Shown here: positions 49,285-51,110 of the stretch, piece after piece | How positions within the stretch are numbered: the first letter of the stretch is position 1 | Layout: every line of letters starts with the position of its first letter | From: a phage | DNA: 64,000 nt | Direction: 5' to 3' (one strand) | Assembly (NCBI GenBank): GCA_024911895.1 | Contig: GCA_024911895.1_3948.1 | Position numbers and translations under genes: made by a program | Notes under the pieces: model-generated | Database searches by the model: none | What the model was told of the DNA's origin: nothing | What the model saw: only the letters and a program-made list of their open reading frames with translations

Positions 49285-49363
49285 TGGTACTCCATATCGG
49301 ATTCGAACCGATACATAACACAGATTTTAAGTCTGGCCTCTCTACCAATTGGAGTAATGGAGC
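49285..49363 (-). tRNA. tRNA with anticodon UAA (Leu-type anticodon) but short variable loop
   Basis: Acceptor GCTCCAT/ATGGAGT, D-loop AATTGGTA, anticodon loop CTTAAAA, 7-nt variable region. Confidence 0.5.
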
Positions 49364-49365
49364 AT

Positions 49366-49441
49366 TGGCGGGGGATGTTGGAATTGAACCAACTTCTTCG
49401 ATTTCAAAGACCGAGGTTTTAACCTTGTAAACTAATCCCCT
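49366..49441 (-). tRNA. tRNA-Gln (UUG)
   Basis: Anticodon arm TCGGT-CTTTGAA-ATCGA. Confidence 0.65.
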
Positions 49442-49449
49442 TTAAATCT

Positions 49450-50007
49450 TTACTTTCTCAGTGGATGAATAAAGAATGCCAACATAACTCTTTCCCTTGA
49501 GAATGCTCTTTCTTCTGGGACAACACTTTTTAGCTTCCATCCAATATAAATTCTCCAGTAAAACTGTTTACCAAAGACTTTAATTGATGGGATAAAAGCG
49601 AATAATCCCCAAGCATTACTGTTCCACATTAGGAGGTAACCAGTCTGATTATCTTCAGGGTCAGAACTTACGTTGATATTACCTTTCCACTTAGTAACAC
49701 CTTTTACATCTCTTCCTAATACATGGTAAGAGAAGTTATAAGCTTTGTTTCTCCAGAGCCATCCAACTCTCTGCATGTAGATACCCAGCTTACCAATCTT
49801 TCTAATCTTAGCCCATCTTTTAACGTGGCCTTCATCACCATCAATCGGGTTGTCATAGGTCTCCATCCATCTGAATCCAAAAGGTAGATGTCCTTTCTTC
49901 TCACTGTAGAATGGAACTACGAAAGGTGCTAAGATGACTGCTAGGGTTGCTGCAAATGGTTCTAACAAAGCTAAGAAAATCCATGAAACATATTTTAAGT
50001 ATCTCAT
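49450..50007 (-). CDS. Hypothetical membrane protein embedded in tRNA array
   Basis: 185 aa with N-terminal TM segment. Confidence 0.4.
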   Translation of the reverse strand: MRYLKYVSWIFLALLEPFAATLAVILAPFVVPFYSEKKGHLPFGFRWMETYDNPIDGDEGHVKRWAKIRKIGKLGIYMQRVGWLWRNKAYNFSYHVLGRDVKGVTKWKGNINVSSDPEDNQTGYLLMWNSNAWGLFAFIPSIKVFGKQFYWRIYIGWKLKSVVPEERAFSRERVMLAFFIHPLRK

Positions 50008-50246
50008 TGTCTAACCCTCGTAAGGAGGTAAGTATTATTGTCTGTTTCTGAGTTTTCTGGTAACACTGTCTCAAAATTGATACTTTTAAATTGTCTTCCA
50101 CCAAAGTAATGACCAAGAAATTTTCCTACTTTTATTGGGTCGCATTCCCATCCGACTTTCAAGAAGATGTGGGTATCTATAGTGGGAACCCTTACAAACT
50201 CAATACTGTTGGGATTTTCATGTTCAACGACGATTAATGTTTGCAT
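50004..50246 (-). CDS. Hypothetical protein (80 aa)
   Basis: ORF. Confidence 0.35.
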   Translation of the reverse strand: MQTLIVVEHENPNSIEFVRVPTIDTHIFLKVGWECDPIKVGKFLGHYFGGRQFKSINFETVLPENSETDNNTYLLTRVRQ

Positions 50247-50264
50247 AAATTCCTCTTGCTTATC

Positions 50265-50340
50265 TGGCGCAGGATAAGGGATTCGAACCCCTATTAACAG
50301 CTTCGTAGACTGTTGCTCTATCCATTTGAACTAATCCTGC
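50265..50340 (-). tRNA. tRNA-Arg (ACG)
   Basis: Anticodon arm ACAGT-CTACGAA-GCTGT. Confidence 0.7.
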
Positions 50341-50453
50341 TTACCTACGAGAACACCATACAGTTTTTCACAAACTTTGTTTTTACGTCTGTTTAGATAT
50401 GACGCTCTAAACTTTTTGCGATGGACTTATCACTCATAGTGCTCTCCTAAAAT

Positions 50454-50531
50454 TGGTGTTCCAAGACGGATTCGAACCGTCACTAATACAAGGTTTGAGC
50501 TTGCATCCTCTGCCAATTGGGATACTGGAAC
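50454..50531 (-). tRNA. tRNA with anticodon CAA (Leu-type anticodon) but short variable loop
   Basis: Acceptor GTTCCAG/TTGGAAC, anticodon loop CTCAAAC. Confidence 0.5.
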
Positions 50532-50532
50532 A

Positions 50533-50607
50533 TGGTACTCACTAAAGGACTTGAACCTTTTTCTTCATCTTGTAAGGGTGATGTTTTACCATATAAACTA
50601 AGCGAGT
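50533..50607 (-). tRNA. tRNA-Val (UAC)
   Basis: Anticodon loop CTTACAA. Confidence 0.65.
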
Positions 50608-50612
50608 GTGAA

Positions 50613-50698
50613 AGAGGTCTGAAGTTGTGCCGCTAACTCAACTCCGTGGAATTTGTTACGGTCTTCAGTTGACACCAGCGGGCTTTCACTTGACCTCT
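50613..50698 (-). ncRNA. tRNA-sized structured element without T-arm consensus
   Basis: 7-bp terminal stem AGAGGTC/GACCTCT enclosing nested stems CTGAAG/CTTCAG, CCGT/ACGG, GTTG/CAAC. Confidence 0.3.
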
Positions 50699-50703
50699 GA
50701 AAT

Positions 50704-50780
50704 TGGTGCTGCTCACAGGACTCGAACCTGCATTTCCATCCTTACAAGGGATGTGTAATAGCCAATTATACGAAAGCAGC
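50704..50780 (-). tRNA. tRNA-Thr (UGU)
   Basis: Anticodon arm CATCC-CTTGTAA-GGATG. Confidence 0.75.
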
Positions 50781-50786
50781 ATTGTT

Positions 50787-50861
50787 TGGAGCATCCAGAG
50801 GGAATCGAACCCTCAACCTCAGTTTGGAAGACTGTAATTTTCCCGTTTAAACTATGGATGC
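50787..50861 (-). tRNA. tRNA-Gly (UCC)
   Basis: Anticodon loop CTTCCAA. Confidence 0.7.
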
Positions 50862-50867
50862 ACTAAT

Positions 50868-50943
50868 TGGTGGAGTCACTGAGAATTGAACTCAGTTCCC
50901 AAGTTTGCAAAACTCGAATTTTAACCATATAAACTATGACCCC
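50868..50943 (-). tRNA. tRNA-Ala (UGC)
   Basis: Anticodon arm CGAGT-TTTGCAA-ACTTG. Confidence 0.7.
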
Positions 50944-50949
50944 ATTGTT

Positions 50950-51025
50950 TGGTACAGGTGGAGGGAATTGAACCCATCGTCTTACTGATTAAGAGTCAGC
51001 CGCATAACCATTTTGCTACACCTGC
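50950..51025 (-). tRNA. tRNA-Lys (CUU)
   Basis: Anticodon arm GCTGA-CTCTTAA-TCAGT; T-stem imperfect. Confidence 0.55.
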
Positions 51026-51032
51026 ATTAATT

Positions 51033-51110
51033 TGGTAGGAGACAAGGGATTCGAACCCTCAAACACCAACTTCTAAGGATGGTAGGTTTACCAATTACCG
51101 TCAATCTCCC
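51033..51110 (-). tRNA. tRNA with anticodon UAG (Leu-type anticodon) but short variable loop
   Basis: Acceptor GGGAGAT/GTCTCCT, D-loop AATTGGTAA, anticodon loop CTTAGAA. Confidence 0.45.

Follow-up and report, generated by a model that had tools for sequence, protein, structure and literature searches.

A long variable arm is the textbook hallmark of bacterial tRNA-Leu. The window analysed here, a stretch of 64,000 nucleotides of phage DNA, contains three tRNA genes with leucine anticodons and no such arm, which raises the question of what these genes encode. A preliminary description had left three readings side by side: unusual leucine tRNAs, tRNAs of another identity that decode Leu codons, or cloverleaves mis-folded by hand. 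The window belongs to a Felixounavirus and shares about 95% identity with the Felix O1-like phages known from E. coli, Salmonella and Shigella. The tRNA genes in question lie within a dense tRNA cluster, with the following features:

46045-47661, large terminase gene, one flank of the tRNA cluster
48090..53535, minus strand, cluster of 25 tRNA genes (ARAGORN, Rfam), all genes on the minus strand and CCA encoded in all
48170..48262, minus strand, tRNA-Ser(GCU), internal control, 93 nt, long variable arm kept (type II; ARAGORN)
49285..49363, minus strand, tRNA-Leu(UAA), type I, 79 nt including the encoded CCA (ARAGORN; Rfam RF00005, 49.9 bits)
49313..49319, minus strand, variable loop of tRNA-Leu(UAA), GUUAUGU, 7 nt, last base U48
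49327-49329, minus strand, anticodon UAA of tRNA-Leu(UAA), anticodon loop CUUAAAA
50454..50531, minus strand, tRNA-Leu(CAA), type I, 78 nt including CCA (ARAGORN; Rfam RF00005, 44.0 bits)
50482..50487, minus strand, variable loop of tRNA-Leu(CAA), AUUAGU, 6 nt, last base U48
50495-50497, minus strand, anticodon CAA of tRNA-Leu(CAA), anticodon loop CUCAAAC
51033..51110, minus strand, tRNA-Leu(UAG), type I, 78 nt including CCA (ARAGORN; Rfam RF00005, 40.0 bits)
51061..51065, minus strand, variable loop of tRNA-Leu(UAG), UGUUU, 5 nt, last base U48
51073-51075, minus strand, anticodon UAG of tRNA-Leu(UAG), anticodon loop CUUAGAA
51365..51454, minus strand, tRNA-Ser(UGA), internal control, 90 nt, type II (ARAGORN)
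52889..52976, minus strand, tRNA-Tyr(GUA), internal control, 88 nt, type II (ARAGORN)
53701-55116, DUF2828/DUF7788 "RNA-binding protein" gene, other flank of the tRNA cluster

The three genes were called by ARAGORN at exactly the coordinates first proposed, and their scores exceed the Rfam RF00005 gathering score of 29 bits, although at 40-50 bits they lie below most other tRNAs of the cluster. The anticodons and anticodon loops that had been read by eye were also confirmed; in each tRNA the Leu anticodon (NAG or YAA) sits in a 7-nt loop with U33. The variable regions, correctly described as short, measure 7, 6 and 5 nt and contain no stem, whereas a type II tRNA has more than 10 nt and a stem-loop at this place. 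All three combine a Leu anticodon with a variable loop of roughly 5 nt in which nucleotide 48 is present, which makes them type I tRNA-Leu; the minimum loop length for this type is 5 nt (PMC6614811). Within the same cluster, the Ser and Tyr tRNAs have the long arm and the three Leu tRNAs do not. A permissive Rfam scan of positions 51100-52150 returned sub-threshold matches only, and the DUF2828 protein encoded next to the cluster had no match in a PDB sequence search.

The nucleotides on which leucine identity depends were then compared between the three tRNAs. All of them carry A73 together with U8, A14, A15 and U48, the pairs U8:A14 and A15-U48 being judged from the nucleotides only. Their D loops are AAUUGGUAGA, AAUUGGCAGA and AAUUGGUAAA, with G18G19 and A20a in the same register as in the E. 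coli leu genes, and the T loop is UUCGAAU in each case and provides the elbow partners U54, U55, C56 and A58. The D arm is host-like, with a 3-bp D stem and a 13.22 mismatch. The UAA and CAA tRNAs share A9, C12:G23 and C13.A22 and differ at the end of the acceptor stem (G1.U72 in the former, G1-C72 in the latter). The UAG tRNA also has G1.U72 but combines G9 with a type-II-like core and a D region that is longer by one nucleotide. Two anticodon stems contain a mismatch, C27.U43 in the UAA tRNA and U30.U40 in the UAG tRNA. Judged on these positions, the complete E. coli leucine identity set is kept by all three tRNAs: every element known to be used by an E. coli-type LeuRS is retained, and the sole missing part is the long arm.

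Folding of the single sequences by minimum free energy was weak and uninformative (z-scores of -0.8 to -2.2, with a clean cloverleaf for the CAA tRNA only) and was counted as evidence neither way. To assess the fold comparatively, 93 diverse short viral Leu tRNAs were aligned. Paired bases occupied 98.2% of the helix cells and all 20 pairs examined (20/20) showed compensatory change; the covariation score was 1.098, compared to 0.239 after shuffling and 0.13-0.20 in slid registers. Covariation extended to all four helices, including the 7-bp acceptor stem, which is maintained by compensatory change. The comparative evidence for the predicted cloverleaf is decisive, and this fold is, from the pattern of substitutions, under selection in the three genes. 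Together with the ARAGORN and Rfam calls, it refutes the suggestion that the tRNAs had been mis-folded by hand, and no alternative register yielded a long arm or a different anticodon.

Positions U8, A14, A15, G18, G19, A20a, U33, A35, U48 and A73 were invariant across the 93 tRNAs. In short Leu tRNAs chosen without the D-loop motif (n=64), A73, U48 and A15 were present in 94%, 91% and 97%, the corresponding values for other class I tRNAs of the same loci being 55%, 36% and 45%. A73 was found in 187 of 192 unique short viral Leu tRNAs, and A20a in 100% of short and of long viral Leu tRNAs alike. Type II Leu tRNAs have G9 in 98% and G12:C23 in 97% of their cores; at T-loop position 59, G prevails in type II and A in type I.

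The distribution of the short form was analysed in viral sequences. Lengths of the variable loop in viral Leu tRNAs are bimodal (5-7 nt versus 11-17 nt), and viral Ser (n=163) and Tyr (n=63) tRNAs are almost never short. In a scan with a generic T loop, the short form made up about 21-26% of motif-matched viral Leu tRNAs. A share of 64% obtained in two earlier viral scans was discarded because these scans required the T loop TTCRAAT and thus missed E. coli-like type II Leu tRNAs, which have UUCRAGU. Type I Leu tRNAs occur in hundreds of phage records, many T5-like phages among them, and E. coli K-12 MG1655 is a recorded host in such records. In four Ounavirinae phages from three genera every Leu tRNA is type I; another member of this subfamily, Hafnia phage Zyzzx, lacks tRNA-Leu altogether. 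Throughout Felixounavirus and Mooglevirus, the UAA and CAA genes hardly vary: the UAA tRNAs of Felix O1 and Michonne are the same as that of the window save one D-loop base, the UAA and CAA tRNAs of Mooglevirus Michonne differ by at most one D-loop base, and tRNA-Leu(CAA) recurs in 160 phage records with an identity of 99% or more. Compensatory changes set both genes apart from their counterparts in Erwinia phage phiEa21-4. Relatives of tRNA-Leu(UAG) are found in Ounavirinae and in T5-like phages; T5 itself has a type II tRNA-Leu(UAG), whereas Tequintavirus EC100 carries a type I gene at the same position beside tRNA-Ala. A BLAST search with tRNA-Leu(CAA) against 5,426 complete E. coli genomes gave zero matches, and there is therefore no close host or prophage copy of this gene in that set.

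Short and long forms are carried together by 45 of the 113 viral loci with at least two Leu tRNAs. In the least biased scan, short Leu tRNAs accounted for 2/34 in loci with 1-2 tRNAs compared to 12/42 in loci with at least 10 tRNAs. The short form has been reached by at least two structural routes, one with a remodelled A9/C12:G23 core and one with a type-II-like G9/G12:C23 core. Outside viruses, stand-alone type I tRNA-Leu genes lie in housekeeping neighbourhoods of Actinomycetota, and among the bacterial contigs that matched the short-Leu pattern, about half consist of dense tRNA arrays, with 10-30 tRNAs in 8 kb.

The codons read by the three anticodons are heavily used by the phage. UUA, UUG and CUA together represent 53% of Leu codons in the ORFs of the window, compared to 13% in a sample of four E. 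coli genes. Within NrdA and NrdB, they fall on an E. coli Leu in 18 of 41 cases (16 of 52 for the other Leu codons), and they match E. coli Leu or hydrophobic residues as often as other Leu codons do. No LeuRS gene is present in the 64,000-nt window, and a LeuRS search of a phage database gave no Ounavirinae record among the top-listed matches; the matches found came mostly from records of Listeria, Staphylococcus, Enterococcus and Acinetobacter phages.

We therefore consider it likely that the three genes are functional type I leucine tRNAs, charged by the host LeuRS and decoding Leu codons on which the phage relies heavily. They would be transcribed together with the other genes of the tRNA cluster and receive leucine from the host LeuRS, an enterobacterial enzyme, as the phage is without a LeuRS of its own. 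Once charged, they would read UUA, UUG and CUA, and probably CUG too, on the ribosome; UUA, UUG and CUA account for about half of the phage Leu codons and are rare in the host. That the arm was lost in Leu tRNAs only would be explained by the synthetases: SerRS and bacterial TyrRS need it, whereas LeuRS can do without. Most likely, then, they are ordinary leucine decoders for codons heavily used by an AT-rich phage, which supports the earlier reading of unusual Leu tRNAs.

Published data on charging bear on this proposal in both directions. Leucine identity in E. coli has been attributed to A73 and tertiary elements, not to the long arm, and arm-less variants are still active (PMC9976931, which cites Larkin et al. 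2002 for these variants). In Aquifex, a variant deleted for the arm keeps about 8% of kcat/Km and deletion of U48 abolishes charging (Yao et al. 2008, PMC2377443). Methylation by TrmL is unaffected by deletion of the whole arm (PMC4615657). However, in in vitro assays E. coli LeuRS (EcLeuRS) could not attach leucine to the type I tRNA-Leu(CAA) that occurs naturally in S. coelicolor, and it is described as charging type II tRNA-Leu only, and acceptance of type I was mapped to the leucine-specific domain of the Streptomyces LeuRS (PMC6614811). The same paper cites contacts of the EcLeuRS C-terminal domain with arm nucleotides 47f-47i. The activity of arm-less E. coli variants and the lack of charging of the S. 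coelicolor tRNA are thus in conflict. The Streptomyces tRNA has C48 in place of U48, and this difference may be the cause of the failure of EcLeuRS.

This failure lends some weight to the idea that the phage tRNAs are charged poorly or not at all by enterobacterial LeuRS and have a mainly non-decoding role, for instance as decoys that draw off tRNA-targeting defences, or in regulation or processing; the anticodon-stem mismatches in two of the three tRNAs point the same way. We regard such a role as quite unlikely. Selection for charging and decoding would be expected to keep A73, A15-U48, A20a, U33 and A35 invariant, as they are, the anticodons fit heavily used phage codons, CCA is encoded in all three genes and the acceptor stem has been kept at 7 bp by compensatory change. 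Charging with an amino acid other than leucine, by which UUA, UUG and CUA would be partly recoded in infection, is highly improbable, and so the alternative first raised of another identity decoding Leu codons appears unlikely. It draws on a tRNA class atypical for a Leu anticodon and, since LeuRS does not read the anticodon, on an identity that would rest on the tRNA body. That body, however, carries the leucine set; G3:U70 is absent, and alanine identity was rejected for this reason. Isotype-specific models gave Leu the top score for Leu_TAA and Leu_CAA of the Moogle-like phage Sf14 (PMC12482277). Moreover, recoding would affect more than half of the phage Leu codons, including those that align in NrdA and NrdB like other Leu codons, and competition from host type II tRNA-Leu would make decoding ambiguous. 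That the genes are decaying pseudogenes or artefacts of tRNA finders would agree with scores under those of most cluster tRNAs and with weak free-energy folding, but near-identity over hundreds of isolates, compensatory changes in every helix and invariance of the functional nucleotides leave it a negligible chance, and conservation and covariation effectively refute it.

A further proposal is compatible with functional leucine decoders charged by the host and adds an adaptive reason for the loss of the arm. Phage Leu tRNAs would escape a nuclease or other factor that recognizes type II tRNAs, which is possible, if on the unlikely side; the factor could be a host defence tRNase, or belong to a phage attack that disables host tRNA-Leu and spares the leucine supply of the phage. 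Enrichment of the short form in tRNA-rich phage loci, the existence of at least two structural routes and the exchange of a type II for a type I gene at one T5-like position all fit such an advantage. Infection by T4 leads to cleavage of a host tRNA-Leu. In enterobacteria, tRNA-Leu is a known tRNase target of the Salmonella Gifsy-1 terminase (PMC11610961) and of Retron-Kva2. These two were rejected as arm-targeting nucleases, as both cut in the anticodon loop and not in the arm, and the literature search found no nuclease specific for the long arm. Loci that mix short and long forms also argue against an advantage of this kind, as do native type I tRNA-Leu genes of Actinomycetota, which exist outside any phage-defence context. 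The full scenario, in which enterobacterial LeuRS efficiently charges natural type I tRNAs provided that A15-U48 and A73 are present, and in which arm-less tRNA-Leu repeatedly evolved or was exchanged in phages by at least two routes under pressure to escape a factor recognizing type II tRNAs, would be unlikely as a whole.

Should EcLeuRS charge type I tRNAs, the published view of this enzyme as specific for type II would be overturned. Classical E. coli and Salmonella phages carry type I Leu tRNAs only, and many T5-like phages carry one; such tRNAs are under clear selection, including in isolates with E. coli K-12 MG1655 as the host, which makes recognition by LeuRS a testable question. At least 130 sequence-diverse short Leu tRNAs constitute a natural data set for finding what has taken the place of the arm within the tRNA core, and they are candidate compact tRNA-Leu scaffolds for engineering. 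For annotation, they call for caution, as the rule that Leu means type II is wrong for many viral tRNAs.

Type I tRNA-Leu is already documented in mitochondria and in S. coelicolor, and is found here to be widespread in phages. The literature search retrieved no paper describing type I tRNA-Leu in phages and none that mentions phage while citing Fan et al. 2019, and Fan et al. is itself silent on phages. The premise of the preliminary description that bacterial tRNA-Leu is type II held for the E. coli genes examined, as seven tRNA-Leu genes of E. coli K-12 MG1655, covering five isoacceptors, are all type II; it did not hold for S. coelicolor (PMC6614811) or for the Actinomycetota genes. The phage tRNAs resemble E. 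coli leuZ, leuX, leuW, leuU and leuV and the T5 tRNA-Leu(UAG) in anticodons, A73, frequent G1.U72, U48 and encoded CCA, as well as in an 18-nt D arm with a 3-bp stem, a 13.22 mismatch and the D loop AAUUGGUAGA. In contrast, the variable region of the five E. coli K-12 isoacceptors and of T5 tRNA-Leu has 13-15 nt with a hairpin and that of the phage tRNAs 5-7 unpaired nucleotides, and the type II core of G9 and G12:C23 is replaced by A9 and C12:G23 in the UAA and CAA tRNAs of the window.

The closest bacterial parallel is the type I tRNA-Leu(CAA) of S. coelicolor, which occurs alongside type II tRNA-Leu in an organism with only one LeuRS and belongs to a class called rare in bacteria (Fan et al. 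2019, NAR 47:6369; PMC6614811). Its variable loop has 5 nt, compared to 5-7 nt in the phage; U8:A14 is important, and the tRNA needs nucleotide 48 and a loop no shorter than 5 nt (PMC6614811). Actinomycetota type I genes and the phage share the D loop AAUUGGCAGA and the T loop UUCGAAU. Unlike in S. coelicolor, the genes described here are phage-borne, all three phage Leu isoacceptors are type I and the hosts are enterobacteria; the Streptomyces tRNA, with C48, has no A15-U48 pair, while both nucleotides of this pair are invariant among the phage tRNAs. The dense tRNA arrays resemble phage clusters but sit on bacterial replicons, in genomes and plasmids. Animal mitochondrial tRNA-Leu(UUR) and tRNA-Leu(CUN) are likewise type I leucine tRNAs, charged without a long arm and identified mainly by A73 and A14 (PMC9976931). 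They are served by a LeuRS specific to mitochondria, and their D and T loops are often degenerate, whereas the elbow of the phage tRNAs is fully canonical (G18G19, UUCGAAU) and their charging would need a bacterial LeuRS. The arm-less E. coli and Aquifex constructs remain dependent on A73, U48 and tertiary contacts between D and T loops, which are the nucleotides conserved in the phage tRNAs. Those constructs are made in the laboratory and work with reduced efficiency, whereas the phage tRNAs are natural and diverse, are under selection and, in part of the family, have a remodelled core (A9, C12:G23).

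With ARAGORN, 25 tRNA genes were found on the minus strand of the window between 48090 and 53535. They are interspersed with small ORFs of unknown function and flanked by a large terminase gene on one side and a DUF2828/DUF7788 'RNA-binding protein' gene on the other. At about 95% identity, this region matches Felix O1-like myoviruses (Felixounavirus, Ounavirinae) that infect Escherichia, Salmonella and Shigella. Three of the genes carry leucine anticodons (gathering score of the Rfam tRNA model, 29):

49285-49363, minus strand, tRNA-Leu(UAA) (ARAGORN; Rfam tRNA model, 49.9 bits)
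50454-50531, minus strand, tRNA-Leu(CAA) (ARAGORN; Rfam tRNA model, 44.0 bits)
51033-51110, minus strand, tRNA-Leu(UAG) (ARAGORN; Rfam tRNA model, 40.0 bits)

The preliminary description had claimed three compact tRNAs with Leu anticodons, and ARAGORN placed them at the same coordinates. The ARAGORN cloverleaf and our own segmentation agree for all three: the acceptor stem has 7 bp, the D stem 3 bp and the anticodon stem 5 bp, and the D loop is large. The 7-nt anticodon loops are CUUAAAA (UAA tRNA), CUCAAAC (CAA tRNA) and CUUAGAA (UAG tRNA); the T loop UUCGAAU, the discriminator A73 and an encoded CCA are common to the three. Their variable regions are GUUAUGU (7 nt, UAA tRNA), AUUAGU (6 nt, CAA tRNA) and UGUUU (5 nt, UAG tRNA), and no long arm was found in any register. 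They are thus type I, lacking the long variable arm of type II tRNAs. As folded by ARAGORN, both Ser tRNAs of the cluster, 93 and 90 nt long, and its Tyr tRNA (88 nt) retain the long arm. The three genes are already annotated as tRNA-Leu in the Felix O1 GenBank record and are listed, their shape uncommented, in the Felix O1 genome paper (PMC3185647).

Other elements lie close by. At 51697-51775 (minus strand) a tRNA-like element scores 31.7 bits with Rfam and is not called by ARAGORN. Its acceptor stem is 7 bp long, its T arm is normal and an anticodon-like arm reads GCGGU-CUUCUAA-ACCGC (UCU, Arg); the place of the D arm holds only 7 nt, and a stretch of 23 nt lies before the T arm. The element is 100% identical in Felix O1 and unlike the ordinary 76-nt tRNA-Arg of Citrobacter phage Michonne. 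Directly 5' of tRNA-Leu(UAG), a long near-perfect hairpin (51106-51205, minus strand), which came up solely as a below-threshold hit to a plant microRNA model, may be a processing or termination signal. Immediately upstream of the cluster, 53701-55116 (minus strand) encodes the 471-aa DUF2828/DUF7788 protein (PHROG 850, 'RNA-binding protein'), for which a PDB sequence search returned no relative.

The comparison with host tRNA-Leu was carried out segment by segment against leuV, leuZ, leuX, leuW and leuU of E. coli K-12. In host and phage tRNAs alike, the D arm is 18 nt long (19 nt in the UAG tRNA), its stem has 3 bp and a 13.22 mismatch, and its loop is AAUUGGYAGA (UAG tRNA: AAUUGGUAAA); both also have U48 closing the variable region and A73, with G1.U72 in several. 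They differ in the variable region, which spans 13-15 nt and forms a hairpin in E. coli and T5 tRNA-Leu and has 5-7 nt in the window tRNAs. Leucine identity in E. coli consists of A73, the A15-U48 pair, G18G19, A20a and D/T-loop tertiary contacts; it is independent of the anticodon and of the long arm, arm-less variants being still active (Giege and Eriani review, PMC9976931). Every one of these identity nucleotides is found in all three phage tRNAs, which supports the earlier suggestion that they are unusual Leu tRNAs.

To survey the form, IMG/VR was scanned with a pattern that combined this D loop with a Leu anticodon and a T loop a short way off, and at least 120 contigs of 5 to 364 kb matched. 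In 260 viral loci (our loci L002-L121, L243-L285 and L291-L387) folded with ARAGORN, Leu variable loops are bimodal (5-7 or 11-17 nt), while of 163 Ser and 63 Tyr tRNAs only one or two each have a short loop. The three window tRNAs were aligned with 90 short viral Leu tRNAs, mutually at most 85% identical. Invariant positions are U8, A14, A15, G18, G19, A20a, U33, A35, U48 and A73; among these, the scan itself had partly fixed those of the D loop, but it had set no condition on U8, U48 and A73. Helix cells are paired at 98.2%, both sides have changed at 20 of 20 pairs, and the covariation score, computed ignoring kinship, is 1.098; shuffles give 0.239, none of 500 attaining the observed score, and slid registers 0.13-0.20. 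Among 64 short Leu tRNAs without the scanned D-loop motif, A73, U48 and A15 are present in 94%, 91% and 97%, compared to 55%, 36% and 45% for other class I tRNAs of the same loci. Judged from these alignments, the cloverleaf fold of short viral Leu tRNAs is under selection.

The first two viral scans were biased, their T-loop motif being seldom present in type II Leu tRNAs. A less biased scan, with a generic T loop (GTTCRANNC) and the D-loop motif still required, gave the short form in roughly 21-26% of the 120 matched loci listed, a rough figure. The fraction of short Leu tRNAs grows with cluster size (2 of 34 in loci with one or two tRNAs versus 12 of 42 in loci with at least ten), and short and long forms are mixed in 45 of 113 loci having at least two Leu tRNAs. 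Felix O1, Michonne (Mooglevirus) and Erwinia phage phiEa21-4 (Kolesnikvirus) have three Leu tRNAs each, all type I; their Ser tRNAs are type II, as is any Tyr tRNA called by ARAGORN. Between Felixounavirus and Mooglevirus the UAA and CAA genes hardly differ, and compensatory changes set those of phiEa21-4 apart. The fetched region of Hafnia phage Zyzzx (Ounavirinae; L393) contains only 12 annotated tRNAs, none of them a tRNA-Leu; not every member of Ounavirinae therefore carries the Leu set.

Two core subtypes can be told apart among short viral Leu tRNAs. In viral Leu tRNAs of type II, G9 is present in 98% and G12:C23 in 97%. Among the short ones of the same 260 loci, A9 occurs with C12:G23 only (79 vs 0), and G9 occurs with G12:C23 in 46 and C12:G23 in 29 (Fisher p ~1e-19, kinship ignored). 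The C12:G23 group tends to C13 and A59, and the G12:C23 group has U-rich variable loops, e.g. GUUUU. In the window, the remodelled core, A9/C12:G23/C13, is that of the UAA and CAA tRNAs; the UAG tRNA, in common with its T5-like relatives, has a type-II-like G9 core. The occurrence of both subtypes suggests that arm-less tRNA-Leu arose by two or more routes.

Relatives of the UAG tRNA, 80-90% identical, occur in 261 records; those listed include many T5-like Escherichia and Salmonella phages of 105-118 kb. Several isolates carrying these tRNAs have E. coli K-12 MG1655 as recorded host. The tRNA-Leu(UAG) of T5 (L122; 6625-6709) is type II, 85 nt long and adjoins tRNA-Ala. At the same position adjoining tRNA-Ala, Tequintavirus EC100 (L389; 7005-7081) has a 77-nt type I gene far more like the Felix-type gene than like that of T5. 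The anticodon stem is CCAUC/GUUGG in the window, with a U30.U40 mismatch, versus UCUCG/CGAGA in Felix O1 (10 of 10 positions differ). That of EC100, CCGUC/GUCGG, resembles the window's: it shares the U.U mismatch and differs at 29:41 by a compensatory change. It looks as if the anticodon stem or the whole tRNA-Leu(UAG) has been exchanged between phage families. A gene 100% identical to the window's also lies at 60278-60355 of GU169904.1 ('Staphylococcus phage SA1', 147 kb); as a Felix-type tRNA-Leu(UAG) is odd for a Staphylococcus phage, this suggests a mixed or mislabelled record.

The same pattern, searched in bacterial contigs (one genome per species), matched at least 120 loci. About half of the matches listed are dense tRNA arrays, and 62 of the loci listed have only one or two tRNAs, many in Actinomycetota. 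There, stand-alone type I tRNA-Leu genes (UAA or CAA) lie in housekeeping neighbourhoods (bacterial loci L162, L168, L139, L155 and others in L123-L242). In Actinomyces the neighbourhood holds pyruvate kinase, an ANTAR response regulator and PolA; in Mobiluncus it holds PolA, and in Corynebacterium Ppx/GppA. In Solirubrobacterales, 54 nt separate a type I CAA gene from a type II UAG gene. These neighbourhoods fit the type I tRNA-Leu(CAA) with a 5-nt loop described in Streptomyces coelicolor (Fan et al. 2019, PMC6614811) and suggest that native type I tRNA-Leu in Actinomycetota is broader than one Streptomyces species.

The three genes probably encode genuine Leu tRNAs, charged by the host LeuRS and supplying codons heavily used by an AT-rich phage. 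Of the Leu codons in the 42 long ORFs of the window, 27% are UUA, 14% UUG and 12% CUA; the corresponding shares in four E. coli genes are 3%, 8% and 1.5%. In the Sf14 study, UUA and CUA usage was higher in phage than in host and the UUG difference was not significant (PMC12482277). In alignments of phage NrdA and NrdB with E. coli, a small sample, UUA/UUG/CUA stand opposite Leu at 18 of 41 positions and other Leu codons at 16 of 52, with no sign of recoding. An E. coli LeuRS query matched nothing in the window; it matched 74 records of a phage database, with no Ounavirinae among the top matches listed. The host enzyme would thus charge the phage tRNAs with leucine, and the arm, dispensable for LeuRS, would have been lost; only Leu tRNAs would be short because SerRS and bacterial TyrRS need the arm.

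Charging is the main uncertainty in explaining them as ordinary leucine decoders. The single S. coelicolor LeuRS charges both types, with five nucleotides, nucleotide 48 among them, as the minimum loop, but E. coli LeuRS, described as type II only, was unable to charge the Streptomyces type I tRNA (PMC6614811), which argues against charging of the phage tRNAs by the host. However, the Streptomyces tRNA has C48 and hence no A15-U48 pair, which is invariant in the phage type I tRNAs, and arm-less tRNA-Leu variants of E. coli (PMC9976931) and of Aquifex (~8% of kcat/Km, with delta-U48 dead; PMC2377443) are charged; both would soften the conflict. TrmL methylation of position 34 is undisturbed by arm removal (PMC4615657). 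Alternatively, arm loss could be advantageous and not merely tolerated, for instance as an escape from a factor recognising type II tRNAs. We regard this as unlikely, as the tRNA-Leu nucleases found in the literature (Gifsy-1 terminase, PMC11610961; Retron-Kva2) cut near the anticodon.

A literature search of incomplete coverage turned up no paper that connects type I tRNA-Leu to phages, and none citing Fan et al. and mentioning phage. The three genes have long been annotated; they belong to type I tRNA-Leu, a kind that is documented though little known. Its phage side, a widespread form with two core designs, appears to be new, as do its standing as the sole Leu form in the Ounavirinae phages examined that have tRNA-Leu and its presence in phages whose hosts are reported to charge type II alone. 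Type I phage tRNA-Leu reveals no new system but offers a clean biochemical test.
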